In this document: positions 45,106 through 64,000 of the stretch, one piece after another
Layout of the letters: each line of letters opens with the position of its first letter
Numbering within the stretch: the first letter of the stretch is position 1
From: an uncultured Actinomycetota bacterium
Lineage (GTDB): Bacteria > Actinomycetota > Actinomycetes > CAVWCF01
Direction: 5' to 3'
Assembly: GCA_963753435.1 (NCBI GenBank)
Contig: CAVWCF010000001.1
Span: 544,001-608,000 of the forward strand
Length of the DNA: 64,000 nucleotides
Notes under the pieces: model-generated
What the model saw: the letters and a program-made list of their open reading frames with translations, nothing else
The model's database searches: none
What the model was told of the DNA's origin: nothing
Program-made: the position numbers and the translations under genes

Positions 45106-45951
45106 TCAGAAGAGGACCGTGGCGAAACGTCCCCGCTCGCGGAATCCGACTCTTTCGTAGGCCTGGCGGGCGGAGACGTTGTGTGAATTCACATAGAGAC
45201 TGACCACCGGGGCACCGCGCCGGGCGTACGCCGCAACGGCCGCCATCCCACGGGCACCCACGCCTCGGCCCCGGTACTGCGGGTCCACCCAGACCCCCTG
45301 CACCTGGCTCACCGAGTCCGAAACCGCAGCCAACTCGGCCTTGAACACCACCTGCCCCTCGGACACTCGAAGCAGTGCTCGCCGGCGCCGGATCAAGTCG
45401 GCCAGTCGGGCGCGGTAGGCGGGCCCGCCGCCTCCCGCCAGTGGCGATACCCCCACCTCCTCGGTGAACATGGCCACCGCCGCTGGCAGCAGCACGTCGA
45501 AGTCGGCCTCGGTGGCCGGGCGGACCAACGGGTCGGCCTCGATGACCGGATCAGCGTCCAGAACCAAGAGCGGCTGATCTGCGCGAACCTCGCGCGCCGG
45601 TCCCCACACCCCAGCCAACTGTGCCCACAGGGCCAACGCGGACTCGGCCGGTCCGACGATGCTTGAGCACCGGCGCCCCAACCGGGCCGCGCGTGCTGCG
45701 AAGGCCGCCAATGCCTGCGGATCCGCTTGCACCGGGATCAGATTGGCCCCGGAATAGCACATCGAGACCAGCTCACTACCCCGGTACCAGCCCCAGAGTT
45801 GGCCGCCGAGTTCGTCAGGCCGCAGGCCGGAATCCCGCACCCGCGCGGCGACGAAGCAGTCCACCACCGGATCGCGCCGCAGCAACGTCTGTGCCGCCTT
45901 CAGGTCTGCCCGGTCCAGGACCCGCAGAGTTGCCGCCACATCAGCCGACAT
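45106..45951 (-). CDS. GNAT family N-acetyltransferase (DUF4081-associated)
   Basis: [39 protein letters not shown] and SLYVN..N..AR.AY.RVGF. Confidence 0.9.
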
Positions 45952-46921
45952 CGCGTACCTGGGCCAACGCCCGTGCCCCGTCACCTACCTCAGGGAACGA
46001 CAGCATCAGGAGCGTCGGCAGTTGGTCCGCTTCGCGCCGGCACGTGGAGATGCGGCCGGCAAGTACGGACTGCTCGTTGTTCGCCACGCCGTCGGCGAGT
46101 TCGGGGGGTCGCCCCGCAACCCAATGCTCGAGGACGAGCATCGGTTCATCGCCGGCCGCGCGGCAGGCCCCGGTTCCGCCGCTGGTCGGCAGCGGCGCGG
46201 ACCGGCGCAGGACGTCGCTTCGATACCAGGACGGATCCGCAGTTGACGGGTAGCGATGGGAGACCAGGACCTGACCGGCCGCCAGCAGTGCTTCCACGTC
46301 GGCCGTCGCCTCGACGGACCCCGGGATGACGTCGCCCTCCAAGCGGGAGACCCGGAAGGCGTCGGCCACTTCGGCCGCCGGGACGTAGTCCTCCAGGTCC
46401 AGCACCACGATCTCGCGCGGGTTCTCGACGAACCACGCGCTCAACTCCCGCAACACCGACTCCAGCGGCACTGCACCAAGCTCACACCAACCGGCGCAGA
46501 TGTAGACCGCAGCGGAGCCGGTCGGGTCGGTCGCCAGCAACTGTTGGCGGGCCTGCTCCAGCGTTGGTCGCAGTTCCGGCACAGGCGCTGGCGGCGGCGG
46601 TGCCTCGGGGTCGGTCAAGACCCCGTTTCGGTACGGGATGCCCGAGCGCAACTGCAGGTGGAACGCGCGTACCTGCCGATCGAGCAGTTGAGTCATCGTG
46701 AGGTTGGTCCAGGGTGTCACCCAGCCCCCCGAAGCCCCGGACGCCGCAGCCTGGTGTGCCCCGAGCAGGCCCACCTCGGCTAGCGGCAGGTCACACAGCT
46801 CGACTGATCCCAGGCAGGGTTCTGCTTCGACCGGGGCCGCATCCGGGGTAACGGTGCACGCGCCCAGCAGCGTCGTCGAAGTCGCTACTGCGGCGATCGC
46901 AGCGGCCAGGCGTACCAACAC
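45941..46921 (-). CDS. Lipoprotein with degenerate PI-PLC X-domain-like phosphodiesterase fold
   Basis: LGAC lipobox; CLGSVELCD, GAHQA, QLLD.QVRAF.L, CELGA.PL and NPREIVVL.LEDYV segments resemble actinobacterial PLC-like proteins; GTG 46921 lies 7 nt after TAGGTT. Confidence 0.72.
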   Translation of the reverse strand: MLVRLAAAIAAVATSTTLLGACTVTPDAAPVEAEPCLGSVELCDLPLAEVGLLGAHQAAASGASGGWVTPWTNLTMTQLLDRQVRAFHLQLRSGIPYRNGVLTDPEAPPPPAPVPELRPTLEQARQQLLATDPTGSAAVYICAGWCELGAVPLESVLRELSAWFVENPREIVVLDLEDYVPAAEVADAFRVSRLEGDVIPGSVEATADVEALLAAGQVLVSHRYPSTADPSWYRSDVLRRSAPLPTSGGTGACRAAGDEPMLVLEHWVAGRPPELADGVANNEQSVLAGRISTCRREADQLPTLLMLSFPEVGDGARALAQVRDVG

Positions 46922-46979
46922 GACTGGCAACCTAACCGCAGCCGCTCGGTAGTGTCGTGGCGGTCCGGAAGGAGCCGTC

Positions 46980-48476
46980 ATGACGCAGGCCGAGACGATC
47001 GAGACGCATTGGAGCCGACGACCGTCGAGCCCGCTGGTATCTGGGGCCGACTACAGGGACAGCCTGCGTGGCCGCGGGTTGCGGGTGCACTACCGCGGTG
47101 AGCGCATCGCTGAACCTGTCGACCACCCGGTCATTCAGCCTTCCATCAACGCGGTGGCGCGCACCTACGACCTCGCCGTCGAGTCGCCGGAACTGGCGAC
47201 GGTGCACTCCAGCATCTCCAACCGGCGCGTGAACCGTTTCCTGCATGTGGCTGAGTCCGCCGATGACGTGGTGATGCAGAACCGGATGCAGCGCCGGCTG
47301 GGCCAGGACACTGGCACCTGCTTTCAAAGGTGTGTCGGGATGGATGCGTTCAACGCCCTCTTCTCGGTGACGCACGACTGCGATGCGGCGACCGGGTCGC
47401 GGTACCACGAAAGGTTCGTGGCGTTTTTGCGGCGGATGCAGGAGGACAACCTCGTGGTGGGCGGGGCGATGACCGACCCGAAAGGGGATCGCAGCAAGAG
47501 CCCGGCGCAGCAACACGATCCCGACCTCTACACCCGAGTCGTCGAGCGCCGGGACGGTGGCGTGGTCATCCGCGGCGCGAAGGCCCATCAGACGGGATGC
47601 CTGAACAGTCACTGGATCGTGGTGATGCCCACGATGCGGATGGGGCAGGCCGACCGCGACTACACGATCGCCGCGGCCATCCCGGTCGACCATCCGGGGC
47701 TCACCTACGTGTATGGGCGACAGTCCTGCGACTCCCGATCCGCCGAAGACGGCGAAATCGACGCCGGCAATGCCCGCTTCGCCGGCCAAGAGGCGATGAT
47801 TCTTATCGATGACGTGTTCGTGCCTGAGGAGTACGTCTTCCTAGATGGCGAACACGAGTACGCCGCGCCCTTGGTTGAGCGCTTCACCGCATTTCACCGC
47901 CGCAGTTACGTGTGCAAGACAGGTCTGGGCGATGTGCTGATCGGCGCCGCCGCCCAGTTGGCGCAGTGGCAGGGGGTGGCCGGCGCATCGCACGTTCGCG
48001 ACAAGCTGGTCGAAATGGCCCATCTCAACGAGACCATCTACGCGGCTGGGATCGCCTCATCGCATGAATCAGCGCCAACCGCCGCAGGCAACTACCAGAA
48101 CGATTCACTGCTGGCCAACGTCTGCAAGCAGAACGTCACCCGCTTTCCCTACGAGCTGGCGCGGCTGGCCCAGGACATCGCCGGCGGCCTGGTCGCCACC
48201 TTGCCGAGTGAGGCGGACCTGGCCGACCCCGAGATCGGTCCCCGCCTACTGAAGTACCTGAGCACCAGCGCCGACGTGCCCACCGAACACCGGATCCGCA
48301 TGTTGCGCCTCGTGGAGAACATGACCATGGGCCGCAACGCAGTCGGTTACCTCACCGAGTCGATGCACGGTGCCGGGTCGCCGCAGGCGCAGCGAGTGCA
48401 GATCGCCAGGGAGGTCGACCTGGAGGCTGACAAGGCGATGGCACGCCGGCTGGCGGGGATAGACGGCGACGACTGA
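46980..48476 (+). CDS. abfD: 4-hydroxybutyryl-CoA dehydratase/vinylacetyl-CoA isomerase (AbfD; HpaB structural family)
   Basis: TGTCFQRCVGMD (Cys-x3-Cys), GAMTDPKGDRS, GAKAHQTG, YGRQSCD.R, GQE, HRRSYVCK and TESMHGAGSPQAQR; AAGGAG RBS. Confidence 0.9.
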   Translation: MTQAETIETHWSRRPSSPLVSGADYRDSLRGRGLRVHYRGERIAEPVDHPVIQPSINAVARTYDLAVESPELATVHSSISNRRVNRFLHVAESADDVVMQNRMQRRLGQDTGTCFQRCVGMDAFNALFSVTHDCDAATGSRYHERFVAFLRRMQEDNLVVGGAMTDPKGDRSKSPAQQHDPDLYTRVVERRDGGVVIRGAKAHQTGCLNSHWIVVMPTMRMGQADRDYTIAAAIPVDHPGLTYVYGRQSCDSRSAEDGEIDAGNARFAGQEAMILIDDVFVPEEYVFLDGEHEYAAPLVERFTAFHRRSYVCKTGLGDVLIGAAAQLAQWQGVAGASHVRDKLVEMAHLNETIYAAGIASSHESAPTAAGNYQNDSLLANVCKQNVTRFPYELARLAQDIAGGLVATLPSEADLADPEIGPRLLKYLSTSADVPTEHRIRMLRLVENMTMGRNAVGYLTESMHGAGSPQAQRVQIAREVDLEADKAMARRLAGIDGDD

Positions 48477-48482
48477 CGTCCC

Positions 48483-49655
48483 TCAGTGGACCTCGACCAC
48501 GGGCGCAGCCGCGCCCTCCTCGCCCGACTCCGGGTCCACGCCCATCTCCTCAGCCAGACGCAGTGCCTGCTCGATCAGGGTCGGCACGATCTGAGCCTCC
48601 GGGACGGTGGCGATCACCTCGCCCTTGACGAAGATCTGACCCTTGCCGTTTCCGCTGGCCACACCGAGATCGGCTTCGCGCGCCTCCCCCGGACCGTTGA
48701 CGACGCAGCCCATCACGGCCACGCGCAACGGGACGTTGAGCCCTTCAAGTCCGGCGGTGACCTCCTCGGCCAGGGTGTAGACGTCAACCTGCGCCCGCCC
48801 GCAGGACGGACAGGAAACGATTTCGAGGCCGCGTTCGCGAAGTCCCAGGGACTCCAGGATCGCGATGCCGACCTTCACCTCTTCTGCCGGCGGCGCGGAG
48901 AGACTGACGCGAATCGTGTCGCCGATGCCTTCGGCGAGCAGGGCCCCGAACGCCACGGCGGACTTGACCGTGCCCTGAAACGTCGGGCCGGCTTCGGTCA
49001 CGCCCAGGTGCAGCGGGTAGTCGCACGCGGCGGCCAACTGCCGGTAGGCGGCGATCATCACGACCGGGTCGTGATGCTTGACGGAGATCTTGATGTCCCC
49101 GAACCCGTGCTCCTCGAACAGCGACGCTTCCCACAGCGCCGACTCCACCAAAGCTTCCGGCGTGGCCTTGCCGTGCTTGGCAAGCAGGCGCGGGTCGAGC
49201 GAACCGGCGTTCACGCCGATACGGATCGGCACCTGGGCGTCGGCCGCGGCCTTGGCGATCTCGGCGACCTTGTCGTCGAACTGCTTGATATTGCCGGGAT
49301 TCACCCGGACACCGGCGCAACCAGCGTCGATTGCTGCGAACACGTACTTGGGCTGGAAGTGGATGTCGGCGATGACAGGGATGTTGGACTTGGCCGCGAT
49401 CACGGGCAGCGCCTCGGCGTCGTCCTGACTGGGCACCGCAACTCGAACAACCTGGCAACCCGAAGCGGTCAACTCCGCGATCTGCTGGAGCGTGGCGTTC
49501 ACGTCGGCAGTGACCGTGGTCGTCATGGACTGCACGGAGACAGGCGCGTCTCCGCCCACCGCCACCGGGTGGCTGGGGTGCTTGAGCAAGAGCTGGCGGG
49601 TCCGGCGGCGAGGGGCCACCGTGCGCGCGGATGGAATACCCAGCGAGACGGTCAT
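48483..49655 (-). CDS. ispG: (E)-4-hydroxy-3-methylbut-2-enyl-diphosphate synthase
   Basis: [42 protein letters not shown] and [10 protein letters not shown]. Confidence 0.98.
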
Positions 49656-52141: not shown

Positions 52142-53584
52142 CTACAACTGCAGTCCGGTAAGGACCATCACCCGGATGTCGGTGTAGTCCTCCATGGCGT
52201 AGCGAAGGCCCTCTCGACCGACGCCGGATTCCTTAACCCCGCCGTAGGGCATCTGGTCGGCGCGGTAACTGGGGACATCGCCGATGACGACGCCGCCCAC
52301 CTCCAACTCCGCGTGCGCCCGGAAGGCGGTTCGCACGTCCCTGGTGAACACCCCGGCTTGGAGGCCGAACTTGCTGTCGTTGACGATGGCGAACGCGGCG
52401 TCCACATCGGGGACTGATTGCAGCACCAGTACGGGTCCGAATACCTCCTCGCAGGAGACCCGGGCGTCGGCTGCGACATCGGTGAGCACCGTGGGTGCGT
52501 AGGTGGCGCCGTCACGCTGTCCGCCCGTGAGCACCTTGGCGCCGCTGGCGACCGCCTCGGAGACCCATTGCTCTACCCGGACCGCCGCTTCCGTGCTGAC
52601 CATTGGACCGACGTCGGTGGTCGGGTCCGTCGGATCGCCGGTGGCCAGGGCCTGAACCTTGGCCACAAGCAAGGGCGCGAAATCGCCCATGAGGGCTTCG
52701 TCGACAAGCACGCGCTGCACCGAGATGCAGGACTGGCCCGCCTGGTAGTTGGCGAATGTGGCGATCCGCGAAGCCGCCCAGTCCAGGTCGTCGGCCGCTC
52801 CGAAGTCGGCGCAAACCACCGCAGCGGCGTTGCCGCCCAGTTCCAGGGTCACGTGCTTTCGCGGCACCGCATCAAGGATCTGGTAGCCAACAGTGGTCGA
52901 ACCAGTGAACGAGATCACCGGGAGGCGAGAATCCGCGACGAGTGCCGGCATGTCCTCGTTGGCCACCGGGAGCACCGACCACATCCCGTCGGGCAACTCG
53001 GTCTCTGCCAGCACTTCTCCCAGCAACAACGCCGACAAGGGAGTCGCGGGCGCCGGCTTGATGATGATCGGTGCGCCTACGGCGATGGCCGGGGCCACTT
53101 TGTGCGCCACCAGGTTCAAGGGGAAGTTGAACGGCGCGATGCCGAGGACGGGTCCCTTCGGCACGCGCCTGACGTAGGCGAGGCGACCGGCGCCGGCCGC
53201 GTCCGTGTCGAGGCGCTGAACCTCGCCGCTGAACCGGCGGGTCTCCTCCGCAGCGAACCGGAAAACACTCACCGCCCGGCCCGCCTCGGCCATTGCCCAC
53301 TTATGCGGCTTGCCGTTCTCGGCCGTGATCAACTCAGCGACTTCCGCCTGCCGTTCGGCCAGACGCTTGGACACGTGCATCAGCGCGTCGGCGCGCGCCG
53401 ACAGCGGCATCCGGGCGGCTGATCCGGCTACGGCGCCAGCGGCTGCCACCGCCGCTTCGACCTGGGCGGCATCCGGGCGGCTGACCCGGGCGACCAAGGC
53501 GCCGGTGTAGGGGTTGGTGACGGCGAACGATTCCGAAGAGGTCGCGCGCTGTCCGGCGAGGTAGAACGGTTGGGCGTCCGACAT
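52142..53584 (-). CDS. NAD(P)-dependent aldehyde dehydrogenase
   Basis: PFNFPLN, KPA, FTGS, LELGGN, GQSCIS, EEVFGPV and PYGGVKESG; divergent from gabT. Confidence 0.95.
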   Translation of the reverse strand: MSDAQPFYLAGQRATSSESFAVTNPYTGALVARVSRPDAAQVEAAVAAAGAVAGSAARMPLSARADALMHVSKRLAERQAEVAELITAENGKPHKWAMAEAGRAVSVFRFAAEETRRFSGEVQRLDTDAAGAGRLAYVRRVPKGPVLGIAPFNFPLNLVAHKVAPAIAVGAPIIIKPAPATPLSALLLGEVLAETELPDGMWSVLPVANEDMPALVADSRLPVISFTGSTTVGYQILDAVPRKHVTLELGGNAAAVVCADFGAADDLDWAASRIATFANYQAGQSCISVQRVLVDEALMGDFAPLLVAKVQALATGDPTDPTTDVGPMVSTEAAVRVEQWVSEAVASGAKVLTGGQRDGATYAPTVLTDVAADARVSCEEVFGPVLVLQSVPDVDAAFAIVNDSKFGLQAGVFTRDVRTAFRAHAELEVGGVVIGDVPSYRADQMPYGGVKESGVGREGLRYAMEDYTDIRVMVLTGLQL

Positions 53585-53642
53585 GAGCACACGCTAGTCC
53601 GACAGTGCCTATCCTTGAGGCCCCTGCCCAAGGATGGTTCCC

Positions 53643-54998
53643 ATGACGTCCCCCGTCACCGGCGGTCCCGAAGTCCCTCAGGAACGCCGCCTCGTCACCG
53701 AGGTCCCCGGACCCAAGTCGCTCAGCCTCATGGAACGGCGCAATGCCGCCGTCTCAGCGGGTCTGGGCACGACCCTGCCGGTGTTCATCGAGCGGGCCGG
53801 CGGTGGCGTCCTCGTCGACGTGGACGGCAACTCGCTGATCGACATGGGTTCCGGGATAGCCGTGGTGAACGTCGGCAACGCCGCTGAGCACGTGGTGGCA
53901 AACGTGTCCGAGCAGGTGGCCGCTTTCACGCACACCTGTTTCATGGTCACGCCGTATGCGGGGTATGTGGAGGTTTGCGAAGCACTGAATCGACTGACCC
54001 CGGGAGACCATCAAAAGAAGTCTGCGCTGTTCAACTCAGGCGCGGAGGCCGTGGAGAACGCGGTGAAGATCGCTCGCGCCGCCACTGGTCGGCAGGCGAT
54101 CGTGGTCTTCGAGCATGCGTACCACGGCCGCACGAACCTGACGATGGCACTCACGGCCAAGGACATGCCCTACAAGCACTCTTTCGGCCCGTTCGCCGGT
54201 GAGGTGCACCGCATGCCGCTGGCGTACCCGTTCCGCTGGCCAACAGGTCCGGACAATTGCGCCAGCGAGGCGCTGGCGACCGTCATCAGCAAGATCGACA
54301 AGGAGGTCGGCGCCGACCAGGTAGCCGCCATCCTGATCGAGCCGATCGCCGGCGAGGGCGGTTTCGTGGTTCCGGCGCCTGGATTCCTGGCCGGCCTTGC
54401 CGATTATGCGCGCAGCAAGGGGATCGTGTTCGTCGCCGACGAGGTGCAGACCGGGTTCGCGCGCACCGGGCACATGTTCGCCTGCGAAGCCGAGGGCGTG
54501 GTCCCCGATCTGATCACCACCGCCAAGGGCATCGCCGGCGGCCTGCCGCTGGCGGCCGTGACCGGACGCGCCGAGCTGATGGACGCAGTGCACACCGGTG
54601 GGCTGGGCGGCACGTACGGCGGAAACCCGATCGCTTGCGCCGCCGCGCTTGGCGCCATTCGCACCATCGAGGAACTGGACCTGGTCGGGGCGGCCCAACG
54701 AATCGAATCGGTGATGACGCCGGCGCTGCGCGCCATGCAGGAGAAGTACCCGGTCATCGGGGACATCCGGGGTCGCGGAGCGATGATCGCCGTCGAACTG
54801 GTCCAGCCCGGCACTCTCGAGCCCGACCCGGCCACCGCAGCCGCAGTGGCCAAGGCGTGTCACGCCGAGGGTGTGCTCGTGCTGACCGCCGGGACGTACG
54901 GCAACGTCCTGCGTTTCCTGCCGCCGCTGGTGATGCCAGAGGACCTGCTGCGCGAAGCCCTGACGATCCTGGACAAGGCGTTCGCTACGGCCGCCTAG
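53643..54998 (+). CDS. gabT: 4-aminobutyrate--2-oxoglutarate transaminase
   Basis: FTHTCFMVTPY, NSGAEAVENAVKIAR, YHGRT, GEGGF, DEVQTGFARTG and AKGIAGGLP (PLP lysine). Confidence 0.93.
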   Translation: MTSPVTGGPEVPQERRLVTEVPGPKSLSLMERRNAAVSAGLGTTLPVFIERAGGGVLVDVDGNSLIDMGSGIAVVNVGNAAEHVVANVSEQVAAFTHTCFMVTPYAGYVEVCEALNRLTPGDHQKKSALFNSGAEAVENAVKIARAATGRQAIVVFEHAYHGRTNLTMALTAKDMPYKHSFGPFAGEVHRMPLAYPFRWPTGPDNCASEALATVISKIDKEVGADQVAAILIEPIAGEGGFVVPAPGFLAGLADYARSKGIVFVADEVQTGFARTGHMFACEAEGVVPDLITTAKGIAGGLPLAAVTGRAELMDAVHTGGLGGTYGGNPIACAAALGAIRTIEELDLVGAAQRIESVMTPALRAMQEKYPVIGDIRGRGAMIAVELVQPGTLEPDPATAAAVAKACHAEGVLVLTAGTYGNVLRFLPPLVMPEDLLREALTILDKAFATAA

Positions 54999-55002
54999 TG
55001 CG

Positions 55003-56220
55003 TCAGGGGGTCCGGTCCTCCATCCCCCACGGCGATCCGTAGGGGCCGGCAAGCAGTTCCAAGAAGGGCTTGGGTTCGAAAGCCTCCGGACCCAACACGC
55101 CGGCGCCGGTCCAGGATCCGTTCGCCAGCAACTCCAAAGCCACGATCGGGTTGATGGCGGTCTGCCAAACCACCGCCTGGGAGCCGTACTCGCGCATTGA
55201 CCATTCGTTGTCCACGACGTGGTAGTAGTACGTCGCCCTGGGGTTGCCCTGCTTGTCCAACCCCGTGACGTACAGGCCCGCACAGGTCTTGCCACTCATC
55301 ACGTCGCCCAGCCCGGCCGGGTCCGGCAGGCAGGCGGCCACAACGTCTCGAGGGCTGACCTCGACACCGCCGACGCGGACCTTCTCGGTGCGATCCAATC
55401 CCAACTTGTGCAGCGTCTTGAGCACGTCGATGAACTCATCGCCGAGCCCGTACTTGAAGGTGGCGCGCTGAACGTCCACCCAACGGGGAATCAGCAGCAC
55501 TTCCTCGTGCTCGACGTTCACACACTCAACCGGACCGATTCCTTCTGGGAACTCGAACACCTCCGGCTCGCTGAAGGGAGCCGTGGTGAACCACCCGCGG
55601 TCCTTCTCGTAGATCACCGGGGGGTTCAGGCACTCCTCGATCGTGGTCCAGATGGAGAACGAGGGCGCGAAGTCGTAGCCGGAGACCACCAAGTTCGAAC
55701 CGTCCCGCACTCCAGCCTCGTGAATGACCGAGAAGTGCTCGTCCGCCGCATACCGGGCGAACACGTCGGCCAGACCCGGCTCGATGCCGATCCCGGCCAG
55801 CGCGAGCCGACCTGCGGCCTCCCACTCAGCGGCCTTGGCGAACTGCTCGTCGCCCAACTTCACCCCGCACTCGGAGTAAGGCTGCTGCGGATGCGGCCTC
55901 GATAGCGACATGGCCATGTCGAGGTAGTCCGCGCCAGCGGCGAACGCACCATCGAATATGGGCATTACGAACCTCGGGTCGACCGCGTTGAGCACGTGCG
56001 TGATCCGCTCTTGACGACACAGCGCTGCCACCGCATCGGCGTCGGATGCGTCCACCTGTGCGGCCTGGAACCGGGCATCGTCAGCCACCTGGGCTACGGC
56101 TCGCTCCGCTCGCGCCAGGTCGTAGTCGGCCACCACGATCGCCTCGAAGAAGTCCCGTCGGGCGGCGATCGGCACCGCAGCCGAACCGACTCCCCCGGCG
56201 CCAACCATCAGGATTCGCAT
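55003..56220 (-). CDS. Saccharopine dehydrogenase-like oxidoreductase (carboxyspermidine-dehydrogenase-like family)
   Basis: MRILMVGAGGVG, YLDMA, G.EPG..DVFA and VEHEEV; AAGAGGAG RBS. Confidence 0.85.
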   Translation of the reverse strand: MRILMVGAGGVGSAAVPIAARRDFFEAIVVADYDLARAERAVAQVADDARFQAAQVDASDADAVAALCRQERITHVLNAVDPRFVMPIFDGAFAAGADYLDMAMSLSRPHPQQPYSECGVKLGDEQFAKAAEWEAAGRLALAGIGIEPGLADVFARYAADEHFSVIHEAGVRDGSNLVVSGYDFAPSFSIWTTIEECLNPPVIYEKDRGWFTTAPFSEPEVFEFPEGIGPVECVNVEHEEVLLIPRWVDVQRATFKYGLGDEFIDVLKTLHKLGLDRTEKVRVGGVEVSPRDVVAACLPDPAGLGDVMSGKTCAGLYVTGLDKQGNPRATYYYHVVDNEWSMREYGSQAVVWQTAINPIVALELLANGSWTGAGVLGPEAFEPKPFLELLAGPYGSPWGMEDRTP

Positions 56221-56260
56221 ACCCACTCCTTAACTTCTTGGGATGTACGTGGCATCTGTA

Positions 56261-57274
56261 CTAGTCCCGATCTGCCAACAACGGCTGAGTCGGATCCCAG
56301 GCCGGCCCACCGGCGGCAACTGCCCGGCGCCGAGCGATCCCGCTCAGCGCCTCCAGGCACACCCGGTTGGCCAGGGCCGCGGTGATGTCGGCGTGATCGA
56401 AAGGCGGCGACACCTCAACCACGTCCAGCCCCACGACGGGTAGCTCGTAGGCGATCCGACGCACGGCATCAAGCAACTGCCTCGCGGTCAGTCCACCGGG
56501 TTCGGGCGTGCCCGTTCCCGGCGCGTGACCGGGGTCGCAGACATCGATGTCGACCGACAGGAAGACTCCGTCGCAGTCATCCGTGGCGATCGCGAACGCT
56601 TCGGACAGGCACTCGTCGAGCCCGCGGGAGACGATCTCGGTCATCTCGTACGAGCGCATCCCCTGCTCGGCCATCCACTGCAGCACTTCCGGCCCGGGCC
56701 AGTAGCCGCGTAGACCGATCTGCAGGAATCGGTCGCCGCGCACGGCGCCTGACTCGATGAGTCGCCGCATCGGCTGACCATGACCGATCAGGGAGCCGAA
56801 CTCGATGTCGCCGGTGTCGGCGTGAGCGTCGAAGTGGATGACGCTGACCCGGCCCCACCCGACACTGCGGGCGACAGCGGTGGCGTTCGGCCACGTGACC
56901 GTGTGGTCGCCACCGAGGATCAACGGGATCGCGCCCGCTTCGACCACCTTGCCCACGGCTGCTTCGAGGTCCCGCACGGAGCGCGCCGCGTCACCACTGA
57001 ACAACTCCACATCGCCGGCATCGCGAACGTCGAGGTCACGAAGCCCGTCCACGCGCAACGCGAGGCTCGGCCTTGACGAGTCGTGCGCCAGGTAGTCGGT
57101 GATGCGGATCGCCTGAGGCCCGAATCGCGCCCCAGAGCGGTAGGAGGTTCCGCCGTCGAATGGCGCCCCCACCACCACCACGTCCGCGCCGGCCATGGTG
57201 TCGTCATCCAGGGCGCACCGCTCAACCCCCAGGAACGTGACGTCGGGGCCGTACTGACCTCCGTAGCGCGCCAT
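56261..57274 (-). CDS. speB: Agmatinase-family ureohydrolase
   Basis: GAPFDGGTSYR.GARFGP, GGDH, DAHAD, SVDIDVCDP..APGTGTPEPGG and DVVEVSP; exact substrate not determinable. Confidence 0.88.
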   Translation of the reverse strand: MARYGGQYGPDVTFLGVERCALDDDTMAGADVVVVGAPFDGGTSYRSGARFGPQAIRITDYLAHDSSRPSLALRVDGLRDLDVRDAGDVELFSGDAARSVRDLEAAVGKVVEAGAIPLILGGDHTVTWPNATAVARSVGWGRVSVIHFDAHADTGDIEFGSLIGHGQPMRRLIESGAVRGDRFLQIGLRGYWPGPEVLQWMAEQGMRSYEMTEIVSRGLDECLSEAFAIATDDCDGVFLSVDIDVCDPGHAPGTGTPEPGGLTARQLLDAVRRIAYELPVVGLDVVEVSPPFDHADITAALANRVCLEALSGIARRRAVAAGGPAWDPTQPLLADRD

Positions 57275-57280
57275 GTCGAA

Positions 57281-58774
57281 CTAGTGGTGAGTCGGGAAGC
57301 CGAGGTTGATCCCGCCGTGGCTGGGATCCAGCCACCTGCTGGTGACCACCTTGCCGCGCGTAAAGAAGTGCACTCCCTCGATGCCGTGTGCGTGCGTGTC
57401 TCCAAACAGCGATGACTTCCATCCCCCGAACGAGTAGTAGGCCATGGGGACCGGGATGGGAACGTTGATGCCGACCATGCCGACCTCTACCTCGTGCTGG
57501 TAGCGCCGAGCCGCGCCGCCGTCGTTGGTGAAGATGGCGGTTCCGTTGCCGTAGGGATGGGAGTTGACCATCTCCAAGGCGGACTCGTAGCTGTCGGTAC
57601 GCACCACCGAAAGCACCGGACCGAAGATCTCATCGGAGTAGACGGACATGTCCGTGGTCACGTGGTCGAAGAGCGTGGGGCCGAGCCAGAACCCCTCGGG
57701 GGCCCCGTCGATGGTGACCTCACGGCCGTCCACGGCCAGCGTCGCCCCCGATGCCACACCCGCATCCAGGTAACTGGCGACCTTGTCCCGGTGCGCCTCG
57801 GTGACCAACGGCCCCATGTCGCAAGCCCGACGTCCGTCGCCGGTCTTCAGCGTCGCCATCCGCTCAGAGATCTTGGCGACGAGTTCGTCCCCGACCGGGT
57901 CCACAGCCACCACGACCGAGATGGCCATGCAGCGCTCCCCCGCCGAGCCGAACCCGGCGTTCACCGCAGCATCAGCGGCCAGATCGAGGTCGGCATCAGG
58001 CAGCACGACCATGTGGTTCTTCGCGCCGCCAAGCGCCTGCACGCGTTTGCCATGGGCCGTGCCGGTCTCGTAGACGTACCGGGCGATCGGCGTCGAACCC
58101 ACGAACGAGGCCGAGCGAACGTCGGGGTGAGTCAACAAACCGTCGACCGCAACCTTGTCCCCGTGGAGGACGTTGAAGACGCCGTCCGGCAGACCGGCTT
58201 CAGCCCAAAGCTGCGCGATGTACATCGACGCGCTCGGGTCCTTCTCGCTCGGCTTGACCACAACGGAGTTCCCGGTCGCGATGGCGATCGGGTAGAACCA
58301 CATTGGGACCATGGCCGGGAAGTTGAACGGGCTGATGATCGCGGCGACGCCGAGGGGCTGTCGGATGGAGTAGGAGTCGACTCCCGTTGACACCTGCTCG
58401 CTGAAGCCACCCTTGAGCAGGTGTGGGATACCGCAGGCGAACTCGACCACCTCTTGTCCGCGCGTCACCTCGCCTAATGCATCCGAGAGCACCTTGCCGT
58501 GCTCGGCGGTGATGAGTGCGGCGATGTCCTCCTTGCGGGCGTTGAGCAGCTCCCGGAATGCGAACAGGATCTGCGTGCGCCGCGTGAGCGAAACGTGCCG
58601 CCACTCTTCGAACGCCGCCTTGGCCGAGGCCACCGCCTCATCAACGACCGCTCCGGATGCGAAGTCGACCTCGGCGGTCACCTGGCCCGTGGCCGGGTCG
58701 TAAACAGGCCCAACGCGCTCAGCAGTGCCGCCGTACGGCTTGCCGCCGATCCAATGGGTGATTCGATCGCTCAT
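57281..58774 (-). CDS. mmsA: CoA-acylating (methyl)malonate-semialdehyde dehydrogenase
   Basis: PFNFPAMVPMW, KPSEKDP, FVGST, GGAKNHM, AGERCMA and GINVPIPVP. Confidence 0.95.
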   Translation of the reverse strand: MSDRITHWIGGKPYGGTAERVGPVYDPATGQVTAEVDFASGAVVDEAVASAKAAFEEWRHVSLTRRTQILFAFRELLNARKEDIAALITAEHGKVLSDALGEVTRGQEVVEFACGIPHLLKGGFSEQVSTGVDSYSIRQPLGVAAIISPFNFPAMVPMWFYPIAIATGNSVVVKPSEKDPSASMYIAQLWAEAGLPDGVFNVLHGDKVAVDGLLTHPDVRSASFVGSTPIARYVYETGTAHGKRVQALGGAKNHMVVLPDADLDLAADAAVNAGFGSAGERCMAISVVVAVDPVGDELVAKISERMATLKTGDGRRACDMGPLVTEAHRDKVASYLDAGVASGATLAVDGREVTIDGAPEGFWLGPTLFDHVTTDMSVYSDEIFGPVLSVVRTDSYESALEMVNSHPYGNGTAIFTNDGGAARRYQHEVEVGMVGINVPIPVPMAYYSFGGWKSSLFGDTHAHGIEGVHFFTRGKVVTSRWLDPSHGGINLGFPTHH

Positions 58775-58805
58775 GTCATCGCCTTTCGTGGGCCGTTTGC
58801 ATCTG

Positions 58806-60215
58806 CTAGGAGTCGAAGCCGAGGCCGAGTCGGTCCAGGCCGCGCAGCCATACGTTGCGACGACCGCCATCCCGGTCAGCACGGTCCAACGACCAGCGGG
58901 TCAACTGCACTCCTGGGTAACGAATGGGTTCCGGCGGGAACGGCATCGGCAGCGTTCGCACCATTTCCAGTTGTGTCAACTCCGTCGCCTTGCCGGAGAC
59001 CAGGTCCAACGCCACTCGAGCGCCGAAGCGGCTGGCCCCGACACCCAGACCGGTGAACCCAGCCACATGTGCGAGGCGGCCGCCGTAGGCCCGGCCGAAG
59101 AACATGGAGAACCGCGAGCATGTGTCAATGGCTCCGCCCCAAGAGTGGGTGAAGTTGAGTCCGGCCAACTGCGGGAACGTCTCGAAGAACTGCTGGGCCA
59201 GCAAGTGGAAGGTCTCGGGCCGCTGATCGTGCACGGAGGAAACCCGACCGCCGAAGTTGTAGACCGCCTCGTAGCCGCCCCAGAGGATGCGGTCGTCCTC
59301 AGTGAGCCGGTAGTAGTGGAACTGGTTGGCCGAATCCGCCAGCCCCTGTCGGGACTCCCACCCGATCGCATCCTTCTGCTGGGTCGACAGCGGTTCGGTG
59401 ACGAGCACGTAGTCGTAGACAGGGATCACGAACGGACGGAAGCGCCGCACCGGGCTGCGGAAAGCGCTGGTCGCCGTGATCACCGAATCCGTAGCGACGT
59501 CACCACGGTCGGTGCGTACGACAAGTCGCGATCCTTCGCTGGCGATGGCGCGCACCGGGCTGCGTTCGAAGACCTCAACGCCGCTCTGCTGACACGCCTG
59601 CAGCAACCCCCAGGCCAACCGAGCCGGATTGACCATCACGACTCCGGTTCGGTCCCAAAGCCCGGCCAAGTACGTCGGCGAATGGACCTCTTTGCGGACT
59701 TGCTGGGTGTCCAGGAAGTCGACTTCAGACCCGTGCTGGCGCAGCAGTTGGGCGTGCTGCTCCAGATCGGCGACCTGCCAGGCCTCGGTGGCCACGGTCA
59801 ATTCCCCAGTGGCCTCCAAGCCGCAGTCGATGCCGTACCGCTCGACGGCGGTCACGATGCCGGCGAGGTTGTCCGCCCCCAACCGCTGCAGCGTGTCGAT
59901 CTCATCGGCGAAGCGCTCGACCCCGTTCGGGAGTCCGTGGGTGAGGCTGGCAGCCACGAAACCACCGTTGCGTCCGGTCGCCGCCCAGGCCACCCGAGCC
60001 CCCTCGAGCAGCACCACCCGTCGGGCCGGATCGGCCTCCTTGGCCTGCAGTGCCGCCCACAGCCCGGTGAAGCCACCGCCGACTACGACCAGATCGGCCT
60101 GATTGGCGCCGCGCAGGGGCGGCAGCACCGCCGGACGGTGCGGATCATCCAGCCAGAAGGGAACCGGGTTGGTGTCCCCAAGGGCGGAGGCCAGTTGCTG
60201 TTGATTCACACTCAC
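58806..60215 (-). CDS. FAD-dependent oxidoreductase (PuuB/DadA family, probable polyamine oxidation)
   Basis: VVGGGFTGLWAA, ATGRNGGF, NQFHYYRLT.D.RILWGG and G.GVGASRFG; GTGA overlap with the ABC permease. Confidence 0.9.
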   Translation of the reverse strand: MSVNQQQLASALGDTNPVPFWLDDPHRPAVLPPLRGANQADLVVVGGGFTGLWAALQAKEADPARRVVLLEGARVAWAATGRNGGFVAASLTHGLPNGVERFADEIDTLQRLGADNLAGIVTAVERYGIDCGLEATGELTVATEAWQVADLEQHAQLLRQHGSEVDFLDTQQVRKEVHSPTYLAGLWDRTGVVMVNPARLAWGLLQACQQSGVEVFERSPVRAIASEGSRLVVRTDRGDVATDSVITATSAFRSPVRRFRPFVIPVYDYVLVTEPLSTQQKDAIGWESRQGLADSANQFHYYRLTEDDRILWGGYEAVYNFGGRVSSVHDQRPETFHLLAQQFFETFPQLAGLNFTHSWGGAIDTCSRFSMFFGRAYGGRLAHVAGFTGLGVGASRFGARVALDLVSGKATELTQLEMVRTLPMPFPPEPIRYPGVQLTRWSLDRADRDGGRRNVWLRGLDRLGLGFDS

Positions 60216-61093
60216 CGCCCGCGGCTTCGCCGCCTGCTCACCACCTGACCCAGAACGACCAGCAAAAGGGCAACCCCGAACATCAGCGAACCAATGACGT
60301 TCACCTGAGGTGGGATGCCTCGCTGGGCAGCGCCCCATACGTACATGGGGAAGGTGACGGTCTGGCCGGAGTTGAAGTTCGTGATGATGAAGTCGTCGAA
60401 ACTCAGCGCGAACGCAAGTGCGGCGGCGGCGGCGATCCCGGGGAAGACCAGCGGCAGAGTGATCCGCCGGAAGGTTTGCCACTCGTTCGCGTAGAGATCC
60501 ATGGCGGCCTGTTCAAGTCGCGGGTCCAGACCCGCCAGGCGCGCCTTTACCGTGACGACGACGAAGCTGATGCAGAACATGATGTGCGCGATCAGGATCG
60601 TGCCGAAGCCGAGGTTGAAGTTCAGGTTCAGGAACAGCGCGAGCAGCGACGCACCGAGGACGACCTCCGGTGTGGCCATCGGCAGGAAGATCAGCAGGTT
60701 CGTCGACTCCCGGCCGCGGAACTTGTGCCGCACCAAGGCGAACGAGATGAGGGCGCCGAGGATCGTCGAGAACAGCATCGTGATGAACGCCAGGCGCAGA
60801 CTCACGCCGACCGCGTTACAGATCGTCGGGTCGCGACAGATGTTCAACCAGGCGTCGAAGGAGAACTGGTTCCAGGTGATGTTCTGCCGACCCGCCGGCT
60901 TGTTGAACGAGAACGCGATGACGTAGGCCACCGGAAGGAACATGTAGGCCAGCGCCAGCACCGAGTAGAAGGCCAGCAGGCGCCGCCGCAGCCATCGGGA
61001 CGCGCGGTACCAGGCCGAAGGCGGCGTCACCGGTAGATCCGGCGGCGGGGGTGCCGCTGACGTAGCCGAGCCGCTGAGCGTGGGAGTCGCCAT
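60212..61093 (-). CDS. Spermidine/putrescine ABC transporter permease (PotC-like)
   Basis: Six TM helices, LEQAAMDL.A loop and FALSFDDFIIT. Confidence 0.93.
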   Translation of the reverse strand: MATPTLSGSATSAAPPPPDLPVTPPSAWYRASRWLRRRLLAFYSVLALAYMFLPVAYVIAFSFNKPAGRQNITWNQFSFDAWLNICRDPTICNAVGVSLRLAFITMLFSTILGALISFALVRHKFRGRESTNLLIFLPMATPEVVLGASLLALFLNLNFNLGFGTILIAHIMFCISFVVVTVKARLAGLDPRLEQAAMDLYANEWQTFRRITLPLVFPGIAAAAALAFALSFDDFIITNFNSGQTVTFPMYVWGAAQRGIPPQVNVIGSLMFGVALLLVVLGQVVSRRRSRGR

Positions 61094-61995
61094 CAGACCA
61101 GGTCCTCCGTTCCAGCCCGGCGGATGTAGAGGAACACCAGAACCAGGATGGTGAACATCAGGATGAACGACAACGCCGAGGCCAACGGGTAGTTACGAAC
61201 GCTGACGAACTGCGCCTGGATGACGTTGCCGATCATCGTGGTGCGTGGACTGCCGAGCAGCGTGGACGAGATGTAGTCGCCCGCCGCCGGGATGAACGTG
61301 AGCAGCGTCCCGGCGATTACTCCCGGCATGGACAGCGGCAGCGTCACCTTGCGGAAGCCGGTGAAGGGCCGGGAGTAGAGGTCACCGGCCGCCTCGATGA
61401 GTCTTGGGTCGATCCGGTCCAGGGCCGCATACAGCGGCAGGATCATGAACGGCAGGAAGTTGTAGGTGATGCCAGTCACGACCGCGAGCCACGTGGACAA
61501 CACCGTGATGTCGGCCCCCGGCCAGAACGAGTTGAACGTGCTCAGGAACCAGCCCTCGTCAGCCAGAATCGACTTCCACGCGTTCGTACGGACCAGGAAC
61601 GACGTGAAGAACGGCGCAACAATCAGGATCAGCATCAGGTTCCGCCAGCGGCCTGCCCGGAACGCGATGAAGTAGGCCAACGGGTAGGAGATCAGCAGTG
61701 CGAGGACGGTCGCCGTCCCGGCGTACAAGAAGGAACGGGTGAACTGCGGCAGGTACGTCGTGATCGCATCGACGTAGTTGGAGACCTCGAATCCAGGGAC
61801 ATAGCCGGGACCATCGGGGTTGGGCGCCTGCAACGAGGTCGCGAACAGGGACAGCAACGGCACGGCGAAGAAGACGAACAGCCATGCCATGCCTGGCAAC
61901 AGCAGCAGGTAGGGAGTCCACCGGCGCCGGCCAACCGGCGTGGCCTCCGAACTGCCGGTTTGGACGAGGCCCGCGTCGGGCACCACGGCCGGCAT
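61093..61995 (-). CDS. Spermidine/putrescine ABC transporter permease (PotB-like)
   Basis: YPLAY, PFFTSFLVRT.AW, LPFMILPLY and LIEAAGDL loop. Confidence 0.93.
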   Translation of the reverse strand: MPAVVPDAGLVQTGSSEATPVGRRRWTPYLLLLPGMAWLFVFFAVPLLSLFATSLQAPNPDGPGYVPGFEVSNYVDAITTYLPQFTRSFLYAGTATVLALLISYPLAYFIAFRAGRWRNLMLILIVAPFFTSFLVRTNAWKSILADEGWFLSTFNSFWPGADITVLSTWLAVVTGITYNFLPFMILPLYAALDRIDPRLIEAAGDLYSRPFTGFRKVTLPLSMPGVIAGTLLTFIPAAGDYISSTLLGSPRTTMIGNVIQAQFVSVRNYPLASALSFILMFTILVLVFLYIRRAGTEDLV

Positions 61996-61998
61996 TGC

Positions 61999-63183
61999 TC
62001 AGCCCCCGACCGCGGTCTCGGCGATGCGACCTGTCGCGATCTCCACTACGTCGGAGTCCAGTCCCGCCTCGATTCCCTGCGATGCGTCCAGACCGAAGCT
62101 GTGGATCGGATCCCACACCAACTCAACCCGATCACCGCGACGAATCGGATCCTCCATGTGCAGGTTCTGTTCGAAGCACTGGTACTCCGCGCCCCAGTTC
62201 GCGCGGATCAGGAACTGCGTGCTCAGGCCGGTGAACGAGGCATCGGTGACCACCCCTTCGACTCGGTTCAAGCCCGACTCCCCACCCGCGTCGGAAAGCC
62301 GCCGGATTCGGGTCTTCTCCGGCCGAACACCGAGGACCACTTCGGGCCCATCCGTTGCCGAGCGCTGCTTGGGCAATGCCCACCGCTGCCCGAAGCCCTC
62401 AACCACCAAGTTGTCCGAGTCCGAGGTGACCACTGTCGCCGGAATGAGGTTGCTCTGGCCCAGGAAGTTGGCGACGAAGACCGTCGCCGGGCGGTCGTAG
62501 ATCTCCGCCGGCGCACCCATCTGCTCGATGCGGCCGTGGTTCATGACGGCGACGGTGTCGGCCATCGTCATGGCCTCTTCCTGGTCGTGCGTGACATGGA
62601 TGAAGGTGATCCCGACCTCCACCTGGATGCTCTTCAACTCGATCTGCATCTGCCTGCGCAGTTTGAGGTCCAGCGCGCCAAGCGGTTCGTCGAGCAGAAG
62701 CACATCGGGTTGGTTGATCAGGGCCCTGGCCAGCGCAACGCGCTGCTGCTGGCCTCCGGACAACTGTGCCGGCTTGCGCCGGGACATCTGTTCCAGTTCC
62801 ACGAGGGCCAACATCTGTTGGACCTGCTCGTCAACGTCCTTCTTGCCACGCCGACGCAGTCCGAATGCCACGTTCTCAAAGATGTCCATGTGCGGGAACA
62901 GCGCGTAAGACTGGAAGACCGTGTTCACCGGGCGCTCATAGGGGCGCTTCGTGGTCACGTCGTTCTCGCCGATCAGCACGGAGCCAGCTGTTGGCTCCTC
63001 CAACCCGGCGACCATTCGCAGCGTCGTGGTCTTGCCGCAACCGCTAGGTCCCAGAAGCGCGAAGAAGCTGCCCGCCGGAAAGGTGAGGTTGAGGTCATCG
63101 ACCGCCTTGGCCTCACCGAACTGCTTGGTGAGGTGAATCAGATGGAGGTCTTCGACCTCACGACGGATCTGGTCTTGCGTCAC
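61999..63183 (-). CDS. Spermidine/putrescine ABC transporter ATP-binding protein (PotA-like)
   Basis: GPSGCGKTT, VNTVFQSYALFPHM, LSGGQQQRVALARAL and LLLDEPLGALDLKLR; C-terminal TOBE region. Confidence 0.95.
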   Translation of the reverse strand: MTQDQIRREVEDLHLIHLTKQFGEAKAVDDLNLTFPAGSFFALLGPSGCGKTTTLRMVAGLEEPTAGSVLIGENDVTTKRPYERPVNTVFQSYALFPHMDIFENVAFGLRRRGKKDVDEQVQQMLALVELEQMSRRKPAQLSGGQQQRVALARALINQPDVLLLDEPLGALDLKLRRQMQIELKSIQVEVGITFIHVTHDQEEAMTMADTVAVMNHGRIEQMGAPAEIYDRPATVFVANFLGQSNLIPATVVTSDSDNLVVEGFGQRWALPKQRSATDGPEVVLGVRPEKTRIRRLSDAGGESGLNRVEGVVTDASFTGLSTQFLIRANWGAEYQCFEQNLHMEDPIRRGDRVELVWDPIHSFGLDASQGIEAGLDSDVVEIATGRIAETAVGG

Positions 63184-63197
63184 TTCGTCCTCCCGGC

Positions 63198-64000
63198 CTA
63201 GTTGCCGATCGCCTGCTGGAAAGCGGCCTGGTAGCGCTGTTCTTCTTCTTCGCTCAAGGACTTGAAGATCACTCCCCGCGACAACTGCTCGTCGTCGGGG
63301 AAGATCCACTCACTGTCAACCAGCTCCGGGTCCACCTGCTCCATGGCCTCTCTAGCGCCTTCGAACGGGCATAGGTACTGGACATACGCGGCCACCTCGG
63401 CAGCGATATCCGGCTGGGTGTACCAGTCGAGCAGCGCTTCCGCGTCGGCTTGATCGCCGGCCCCCTGCGGCACCATGGACGTGTCCGTCCACAGAGTCCC
63501 GCCAGACTCCGGCAGCGCAAACCCGTACTCTTCGCCCAGCGCGACCACATCGCCGGACCAGCCGATGACGGCCGCGATGTCACCGTTCTCCAACGAGTTC
63601 AGGTAGTCGTTGCCTTGAACCTGGCGGATCTGACCGTTGTCGATCTGCTTGACCAGTTCCGCGAGCGCCTGGTCAAACTCGTCGTCGCCGAAGTCGGTGG
63701 GGTCGTTGCCCTGCCACAACATGATTACGCCGATGGTGTCGCGCATCTCGGACACGACACCCACGCGGCCACGAAGCCCCGGGTCCCAAAGATCATCAAG
63801 CGTGCGCATCTCCGACTTGCCGGCGAGGTCGGCAAGGAGCGGAACGTTCCAACCCAGTCCCGCGAATCCGGACTGCCAGGGAACCGTGTAACTGCGGTCC
63901 GGGTCGTACTCGGGGCTCTTGAGCCGCTCGATGATCCGGGACGAACCAGGGATGTTGTCCTTGTTCAGCTTCTCGCTGTAGCCCAAGTTGATCCAGCGGG
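63198..64000 (-). CDS. Polyamine ABC transporter substrate-binding protein (PotD/PotF-like), 5' end outside the window
   Basis: DP.RSYTVPWQSG, EMRDT.G, GWSGD, PESGG.LW.D and AAYVQY..P. Confidence 0.92.
   Translation of the reverse strand, partial: RWINLGYSEKLNKDNIPGSSRIIERLKSPEYDPDRSYTVPWQSGFAGLGWNVPLLADLAGKSEMRTLDDLWDPGLRGRVGVVSEMRDTIGVIMLWQGNDPTDFGDDEFDQALAELVKQIDNGQIRQVQGNDYLNSLENGDIAAVIGWSGDVVALGEEYGFALPESGGTLWTDTSMVPQGAGDQADAEALLDWYTQPDIAAEVAAYVQYLCPFEGAREAMEQVDPELVDSEWIFPDDEQLSRGVIFKSLSEEEEQRYQAAFQQAIGN

Follow-up and report, generated by a model that had tools for sequence, protein, structure and literature searches.

A 4-hydroxybutyryl-CoA dehydratase homologue of the Nitrosopumilus maritimus type in an uncultured actinomycete

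Locus and gene

The 64,000-nucleotide stretch of DNA analysed here, called the window below, comes from an uncultured Actinomycetota bacterium (GenBank assembly GCA_963753435.1, contig CAVWCF010000001.1, positions 544,001 to 608,000). Its plus strand holds an intact open reading frame (ORF) at 46980..48476, running from ATG to TGA with no internal stop, and we are highly confident that the 498-residue product belongs to the 4-hydroxybutyryl-CoA dehydratase family. The ATG at 46980 is supported as the start, because a 97% identical homologue covers all 498 residues. A preliminary description of the locus, made by a model from the letters alone, had named the gene as such a dehydratase with the expected [4Fe-4S] ligands and motifs, and direct search located all of them: NRFLH at residue 85, TGTCFQRC at 111, GQE at 269, HRRSYVCK (H306-x5-C312), GRNAVG at 451 and TESMHG at 459. 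The ribosome-binding site AAGGAG (46969..46974, plus strand) lies 5 nt 5' of the ATG, as described. The hexamer TAGTGT (46950..46955, plus strand), put forward as the -10 element, is likewise in place, but it has no -35 match and a sigma-70 scan found no promoter upstream of the gene. Its role as -10 is plausible, if unproven, since hexamers of the form TANNNT are common upstream of genes in this genome: they occur within 60 nt of 516 of the 2068 predicted genes versus 2% of random 60-mers, a roughly twelve-fold enrichment.

The gene lies in the ispG-GNAT-proS block on the strand opposite to it, as the preliminary description had said. It converges with ispG (48483..49655, minus strand); on the other side is a DUF4081/GNAT acetyltransferase gene (45106..45984, minus strand), which directly follows ispG in relatives without the insert, and beyond this lies proS, also opposite in strand to the dehydratase gene. 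Overlooked at the time was that the insert consists of two genes, with a PI-PLC-like domain gene (45941..46921, minus strand; start uncertain, frame open to 46981) sitting between the dehydratase and GNAT genes and divergent from the former. A metagenome-assembled genome (MAG) of Ca. Nanopelagicales also has a dehydratase gene, 78% identical, between GNAT and ispG, but the PI-PLC-like gene is missing there; four other genomes, two of them same-family relatives, have ispG followed by GNAT and lack the dehydratase. This pattern fits equally a gene long resident here and lost in some lineages, or one transferred by way of the conserved flanks.

Codon usage is host-like, as claimed before: among 921 genes of at least 300 aa, the third-position GC content of 0.838 falls at the 46th percentile and the codon adaptation index of 0.671 at the 43rd, both computed on codons 36-498. 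With dN/dS values of 0.11-0.18 against four actinomycete copies, the gene is under purifying selection. Seven estuary RNA runs contained 5-10% of the sequence words, and in the four of them that were mapped near-identical short contigs span parts of the gene; in one of these contigs all 10 of the 10 listed differences are synonymous. The contigs also reach the flanks and intergenic DNA (depth 2-12), so they show a close relative in those libraries and do not imply transcription or its level.

Family, active site and tunnels

Among sequences of the PDB, the best match is the N. maritimus enzyme Nmar_0207 (6VJR, 715.5 bits), which aligns without gaps over residues 20-497 at 64% identity, followed by Clostridium aminobutyricum AbfD (1U8V, 572.3 bits, 53% identity) and by HpaB 4-hydroxyphenylacetate 3-monooxygenase (121.7 bits). 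An AF2 model (pLDDT 91.1, 41-row alignment) gave the same order in Foldseek, with a TM score of 0.94 and an rmsd of 1.4 Å to 6VJR, 0.93 to 1U8V and 0.79-0.85 to HpaB structures. The earlier assignment to the N. maritimus type, as opposed to the clostridial HRQSYGGCK type or HpaB, is thus borne out by scores (715 vs 572 vs 122 bits), residues and trees. A HpaB-type flavin monooxygenase, with which the product shares its overall fold and to which Pfam would assign it (HpaB_N and HpaB are the only domains reported), can practically be dismissed: the HpaB TIGRFAMs stay far under their cut-offs (TIGR02309 156 vs 480, TIGR02310 77 vs 885), HpaB structures are only about 20% identical, and our sequence has the complete set of Fe-S ligands. 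The predicted risk of mis-annotation is real, as NCBI names close homologues '4-hydroxyphenylacetate 3-hydroxylase N-terminal domain-containing protein'.

All four cluster ligands are present, C114-x3-C118 (47319..47333, plus strand) corresponding to C. aminobutyricum C99/C103, and H306-x5-C312 with the catalytic Y310 (47895..47915, plus strand) to H292/Y296/C299. The catalytic residues T205, E271, Y310 and E460 equal T190/E257/Y296/E455, which, like the four ligands, are given by DeMirci et al. 2020 (bioRxiv 10.1101/2020.02.05.935528). The H-x5-C spacing is that of the N. maritimus enzyme; relative to AbfD the product lacks the GG of HRQSYGGCK and an 8-residue insertion.

In this family the cluster binds the 4-hydroxyl and FAD withdraws electrons to give an enoxy/dienolate radical intermediate, from which water is lost to yield crotonyl-CoA. 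The fully conserved active site suggests that our enzyme would use the same radical chemistry and catalyse the same reaction as AbfD.

According to the same preprint, the substitutions L77, T102, R441 and N442 shut two back tunnels of the archaeal enzyme (DeMirci et al. 2020). With a numbering offset of 11, all four have equivalents here: L88 (47241..47243, plus strand) for L77, which closes back tunnel 2, and T113 (47316..47318, plus strand) and R452-N453 (48333..48338, plus strand) for T102 and R441-N442, which constrict tunnel 1. The back tunnels of our enzyme would thus be closed, unlike those of AbfD, and we predict a tunnel-closed, N. maritimus-type dehydratase with oxygen tolerance. The combination LTRN occupies these positions in 67 of 69 bacterial loci and 36 of 37 loci of ammonia-oxidizing archaea (AOA), with Val or Ile for Leu in the others. 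A bacterial example of the type is already published: DeMirci et al. 2020, whose 'aerobe' clades include bacterial members, describe the enzyme of Plesiocystis pacifica as having the tunnel-1 residues. Literature searches covering few subscription journals turned up no work on the biochemistry or physiology of any bacterial tunnel-closed enzyme, and none on an actinomycete copy.

Distribution and phylogeny

Of 7999 scored homologues, the best 120 show 72-97% identity to our protein, and those few that bear an organism name come from actinobacteria, Chloroflexota or an acidobacterium. A search of GTDB with query-derived patterns, which bias the bacterial sample toward our sequence, gave 557 loci, of which the best 80 were retained, 63 bacterial and 17 archaeal; the bacterial carriers among them belong to Acidobacteriota, Myxococcota, Actinomycetota and Alpha- and Gammaproteobacteria, the Myxococcota including cultured Nannocystis species with copies 71-73% identical to ours. 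Five plasmids, four of Bradyrhizobium elkanii and one of Sphingomonas, carry the tunnel-closed type at 61-67% identity. In the host's own class the gene is rare. None of 60 class relatives has it, not even the two same-family genomes, which are 88% and 58% complete, and the close type occurs in five of 400 genomes of the class, four copies being intact. The fifth (locus L124, G130:C12, about 8709-9489) has a frameshift near residue 170, and its match ends by residue 273.

In a distant type at 35-38% identity, found in six of the 400 genomes, the second Cys is missing along with two catalytic Glu, and the reaction is probably a different one. Five of its loci (L109-L113, in genomes G184, G076, G122, G164 and G234) have C..Y in place of C..C and the motif HHRHTCIGARA, and the catalytic Glu is absent.

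Three trees were calculated (FastTree with 144 rows, a quick IQ-TREE C20 run with 83 rows and a careful IQ-TREE LG+G4 run with 40 rows), excluding the distant 35-41% types throughout. They were rooted on crenarchaeal-type copies, taken from a search of a 151-genome archaeal phylum and assigned to type by motif and identity. In all three, AOA and bacterial sequences form one tunnel-closed clade (support 0.972; 99; 100/100) apart from both the anaerobe-type and the crenarchaeal-type enzymes. Our sequence falls in an actinobacterial subclade (0.936; 90; 100/97; 5 rows in the 40-row tree) inside a purely bacterial group, in line with its identity of 72-82% to actinobacterial and other bacterial sequences vs 62-67% to 37 AOA copies. 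Approximately unbiased (AU) tests under LG+G4 on the 40 rows reject its monophyly with nine AOA sequences (p=4.05e-15, a cost of 199 log-likelihood units). The preliminary description had named a place in or sister to the thaumarchaeal clade as support for its reading; this did not hold (AU p=4e-15), our sequence nesting among actinobacterial and other bacterial ones outside the archaeal clades. A grouping with HpaB or ordinary clostridial enzymes was named there as the outcome that would speak against the assignment; when our sequence was constrained to join the anaerobe type, represented by two fusobacterial copies, this was rejected as well (p=5e-61). By its sequence relationships, 'thaumarchaeal-like' is right as enzyme type and wrong as origin, and the gene appears to have come from a bacterial pool of the tunnel-closed enzyme, long enough ago to look host-like.

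AOA themselves fall into two parts in all free trees: Nitrosocaldales stand apart, and the other AOA have a proteobacterial group next to them. A monophyletic AOA is nevertheless not rejected (p=0.147), and the test of monophyletic bacteria gives a borderline value (p=0.0505), so that inter-domain transfer may have run in either direction. According to Abby et al. (PMC7554672), the dehydratase was possibly a new acquisition of the AOA ancestor. The whole bacterial clade shares the four tunnel-closing residues, so oxygen protection may be older than the archaeal use of the enzyme. A broader scenario, speculative and in our estimate rather unlikely as a whole, would make the tunnel-closed dehydratase an originally bacterial enzyme whose gene, unaccompanied by partners, reached Acidobacteriota, Myxococcota, Chloroflexota, Proteobacteria and a few actinomycetes. 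There it would run an undescribed aerobic route, either removing the terminal hydroxyl left after β-oxidation of ω-hydroxy acids or, in reverse, leading from two acetyl-CoA to succinate where the glyoxylate and ethylmalonyl-CoA routes are absent; AOA would have recruited it ready-adapted, perhaps twice, Nitrosocaldales apart from the rest.

Neighbourhoods and partner genes

No CoA transferase, ligase or 4-hydroxybutyrate (4HB) dehydrogenase lies next to the gene in the window, as previously stated, and neither abfT nor abfH of the abfD-abfT-abfH operon was found in the host genome. An ADP-forming 4HB-CoA ligase, linked to the dehydratase in seven AOA loci, is likewise absent at our locus. The label 'orphan' is accurate in that the gene stands alone; as a peculiarity it fails, since standing alone is the normal state for the tunnel-closed clade. 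When the 2843 ORFs of 84 loci were clustered all against all, no partner proved to be conserved beyond kin groups, bar an acyl-CoA ligase in five loci. A Pfam scan of neighbours (89 of 149 selected proteins, 51 loci) found an AMP-forming acyl-CoA ligase, thiolase, acyl-CoA dehydrogenase or MaoC adjoining the dehydratase in four loci, and looser hints in four more, namely a short-chain dehydrogenase/reductase (SDR), Zn-dehydrogenase, carboxyltransferase or HMG-CoA reductase; among the 89 proteins there was no AbfT-type transferase, iron-containing alcohol dehydrogenase (Fe-ADH) or class III aminotransferase. This informative minority points to acyl-CoA catabolism. The Sphingomonas copy adjoins a CoA transferase and hydrolases, and an anaerobe-type copy in Cetobacterium has the classic cluster, with transferase and 4HB dehydrogenase alongside.

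Across the assemblies of the carriers no partner gene is constant: Ccr was found in 15 of 55, isocitrate lyase in 12 of 54, PF13336 in 40 of 54, PhaC_N in three of 54, and an ortholog of the clostridial-type 4HB dehydrogenase in one of 54, the genome that had supplied the dehydrogenase query itself, with five more matches at 30-35%. Links to Ccr and to polyhydroxyalkanoates were rejected on these counts, the host genome not being among the three with PhaC_N, a model that misses class III synthases. PF13336 is present in eight of nine actinomycete carriers vs 25 of 60 class relatives (Fisher p=0.011). We do not rely on this enrichment: three carriers belong to one genus, one of the eight has the broken copy only, the host genome is the exception, and a background genome (G030) is flagged unpublished.

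Some single neighbourhoods are richer. A B. elkanii plasmid (L116, NZ_CP126033.1, 1865-13990) combines the dehydratase gene with genes for a molybdenum hydroxylase, lactonase, SDR, ligase and crotonase, and an alphaproteobacterial MAG (L068) shares the hydroxylase and the ligase with it; by its gene content the cluster looks like a catabolic route for a cyclic ether or lactone. In four actinomycetes (L120:6688-7992, L121:9493-11948, L122:9440-11804 and L124:9506-12015) a protein of about 410-430 aa is encoded only a few bases upstream in the same direction, for which neither Pfam (E<=1e-12) nor NCBIfam (E<=1e-25) matches were found. In three of the four, all of one genus, an HMG-CoA reductase gene comes first, and this HMG-CoA-reductase-like candidate could in principle reduce succinyl-CoA to 4-hydroxybutyrate. 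The host genome has no HMG-CoA reductase match and only a marginal 56-residue match to the upstream protein. A MAG labelled Gammaproteobacteria holds two tunnel-closed copies (L075, L080) and, on another contig (L175, G448:C16:5001-18000), an acylating aldehyde dehydrogenase, Fe-ADH, CoA transferase, thiolase, 3-hydroxybutyryl-CoA dehydrogenase and crotonase, which make up a full arm from succinyl-CoA to acetyl-CoA.

Metabolism of the host genome

The host genome (2.17 Mb, 98% complete) encodes cytochrome c oxidase and nickel superoxide dismutase, a β-oxidation set of seven acyl-CoA dehydrogenases, three thiolases and five crotonase-family genes, seven AMP-binding matches and four family III CoA transferases. 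Ccr and an epimerase score over cut-off and are accompanied by three carboxyltransferases and three mutase-family genes, including a MeaA-like fused mutase near ccr. Candidates for further ethylmalonyl-CoA steps (CitE-like, MaoC, acyl-CoA dehydrogenase) stay below any specific cut-off, and Streptomyces-type Mch/Mcl motifs retrieved nothing useful from the genome. On this gene content the ethylmalonyl-CoA route is probably available.

A 4-aminobutyrate transaminase gene, gabT (53634..54998, plus strand; NF004714 765 bits, cut-off 639; TIGR00700 575, cut-off 507), belongs to a 4-aminobutyrate (GABA)/polyamine cluster 5-12 kb from the dehydratase gene that the preliminary description did not mention. 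We regard gabT as a source of succinic semialdehyde (SSA) and as context only, and claim no functional link to the dehydratase. Glutamate decarboxylase (661 bits, cut-off 380) and SSA dehydrogenase (NF006916, 704 vs 521) are present, as is a gene that we take, by a motif, to be Kgd-like.

The genome search for 4HB ligase or transferase, SSA reductase and 3-hydroxypropionate/4-hydroxybutyrate (3HP/4HB) cycle genes that the preliminary description had proposed identified no dedicated 4HB-activating enzyme, no 4HB dehydrogenase and no 3HP/4HB cycle. Neither Fe-ADH over cut-off nor a GLXR-type reductase was found in the genome, one of the two strong PF03446 matches being phosphogluconate dehydrogenase and the other carrying no further annotation; nor were isocitrate lyase, PhaC_N, a SucD-kind acylating aldehyde dehydrogenase (E<=1e-40), an archaeal malonyl- or succinyl-CoA reductase of the ASD type (highest score 94 bits, cut-off 301) or a Chloroflexus-type Mcr (15 SDR ORFs, the longest of 546 aa). 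Models for 3HP- and 4HB-CoA ligases remained far under cut-off, and RuBisCO and malate synthase were not found by motif search, the only means used. The 3HP/4HB and dicarboxylate/4-hydroxybutyrate cycles are thus not supported by this genome, in which non-homologous replacements are possible and pyruvate synthase and phosphoenolpyruvate carboxylase were not searched. In this the host differs from N. maritimus, which has the reductases of the cycle.

Proposed role

On balance we lean towards a stand-alone catabolic role, in which 4-hydroxybutyryl-CoA supplied by general acyl-CoA metabolism would be converted to crotonyl-CoA. Family, residues, fold model, clade, purifying selection and downstream genes were all observed, and from there we infer how substrate might be supplied. 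4-Hydroxybutyrate or butyrolactone may be activated by a candidate ligase, three AMP-forming ones in the genome being uncharacterised, or by a family III CoA transferase; otherwise, 4-hydroxybutyryl-CoA may be formed as the C4 end product of β-oxidation of even-chain ω-hydroxy acids, which would make a dedicated partner gene unnecessary. The FAD/[4Fe-4S] dehydratase would turn 4-hydroxybutyryl-CoA, and also vinylacetyl-CoA, into crotonyl-CoA for catabolism or assimilation. Crotonase, 3-hydroxybutyryl-CoA dehydrogenase and thiolase would then lead to two acetyl-CoA, with Ccr and ethylmalonyl-CoA as a possible alternative sink.

Several points weigh against the proposed role and the predicted oxygen tolerance. 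Neighbours are uninformative in at least 43 of the 51 loci, so that neighbour evidence comes from a minority. CoA transferases of PF02550, PF13336 and PF01144 were not found in the host genome, PF13336 being present in 40 of 53 other carriers and in both same-family relatives; the sole ADP-forming ligase, which is fused to a GNAT domain, scores 333 against the NF045493 cut-off of 1300, and no dedicated 4HB-activating enzyme was identified in the genome. The ω-hydroxy-acid route is our own proposal, and no paper linking it to the enzyme was found in the literature searched. One of six tunnel-1 wall residues is altered, N. maritimus G257 being Ala268 here. That closed tunnels bring oxygen tolerance was deduced from structural and simulation work published as a preprint (bioRxiv 10.1101/2020.02.05.935528), and the archaeal enzyme was only moderately oxygen tolerant in Cupriavidus necator (PMC13288912).

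A GABA/polyamine branch, which we consider not very probable, would take SSA made by GabT, Gad or Kgd and reduce it to 4-hydroxybutyrate with an aldo-keto reductase (AKR), medium-chain dehydrogenase/reductase (MDR) or SDR not dedicated to the task, and activate and dehydrate this product to crotonyl-CoA as a low-oxygen electron sink, as in C. aminobutyricum. It draws on gabT 5 kb away, on agmatinase and two aminobutyraldehyde dehydrogenases encoded no further than about 20 kb off, and on glutamate decarboxylase, a sub-cut-off NiFe hydrogenase, Ccr, four AKR and seven other MDR candidates in the genome. The missing Fe-ADH, GLXR-type reductase and AbfT argue against it, as do the direct route that SSA dehydrogenase offers, the lack of class III aminotransferase and Fe-ADH among the scanned neighbours, and the confinement of the clostridial-type 4HB dehydrogenase ortholog to a single carrier. 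Somewhat less probable again is another substrate, either vinylacetyl-CoA, with the enzyme as an isomerase, or a longer 4-hydroxyacyl-CoA left over from β-oxidation of hydroxy or terminal-unsaturated fatty acids. This would account for a clade without a 4HB-specific partner and with β-oxidation neighbours, and isomerase activity appears in the JGI and PDB family name; yet every active-site position checked, pocket-lining residues not being among them, is identical to that of the C4-acting N. maritimus enzyme.

That the reaction can run backwards in vivo, the N. maritimus enzyme having made 4HB-CoA from crotonyl-CoA in C. necator (PMC13288912), would allow a reverse anaplerotic shunt from two acetyl-CoA through crotonyl-CoA, 4-hydroxybutyryl-CoA and SSA to succinate in place of the glyoxylate shunt. 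The host has SSA dehydrogenase and no isocitrate lyase, and 28 of 53 other carriers lack both Ccr and isocitrate lyase in their assemblies, a count without a background rate and including many incomplete MAGs. We nevertheless judge such a shunt improbable, given Ccr and the MeaA-like mutase of the probably available ethylmalonyl-CoA route and the failure to identify a 4HB dehydrogenase in the host genome. Most doubtful among these roles, and in our view very improbable, is CO2 fixation by a bacterial 3HP/4HB or a natural CETCH-like cycle driven by hydrogen. Ccr, the three mutase-family genes, epimerase, three carboxyltransferases and a NiFe hydrogenase would suit it, and genome-based proposals of HP/HB cycles exist for some bacteria (PMC9802188). 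In a genome 98% complete, however, the SucD-kind, ASD-type and Mcr reductases were not found and the ligase models fell far below cut-off, and Ccr is present in only 15 of 55 carriers.

Implications and further observations

The present copy is a rare actinomycete member of a known enzyme type and not a new system; the questions worth pursuing are the physiological role of the bacterial clade and whether AOA obtained the enzyme from it. Many bacteria that have no HP/HB cycle give K14534/abfD matches of the N. maritimus type, which makes homology-based claims of 4HB-cycle autotrophy from the gene alone unsafe. The warning in the preliminary description against hcd as a marker of archaeal autotrophy therefore holds for homology-based annotation, and Archaea-specific quantitative PCR primers (PMC5619642) may be unaffected. 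A soil metatranscriptome study takes abfD transcripts of Nitrososphaerota and Pseudomonadota as support for these cycles (PMC11917034). For biotechnology, the high-GC bacterial version and the carriers available in culture (Nannocystis, B. elkanii, Sphingomonas) offer candidates for use in CETCH-type cycles or in the production of P(3HB-co-4HB), the copolymer of 3- and 4-hydroxybutyrate.

For the PI-PLC-like gene of the insert, the top Atlas matches are PI-PLC-like domain clusters (0.93), and a Pfam match at 1e-3 was not found; its product has a hydrophobic N-terminus ending in Cys and is lipoprotein-like. The polyamine/GABA region (window 52142-64000, continuing on contig C1 at 608001-617419) contains, besides gabT, genes for an aldehyde dehydrogenase, a saccharopine-dehydrogenase-like protein, agmatinase, methylmalonate-semialdehyde dehydrogenase, two aminobutyraldehyde dehydrogenases, an aminotransferase, an acyl-CoA dehydrogenase and a family III CoA transferase. 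Elsewhere on contig C1 of this small genome of an aerobic actinomycete (1052593-1062295; L129, L103) lies an operon for a sulfhydrogenase-like NiFe hydrogenase, below cut-off and presumably of the group 3b type, together with its maturation genes.

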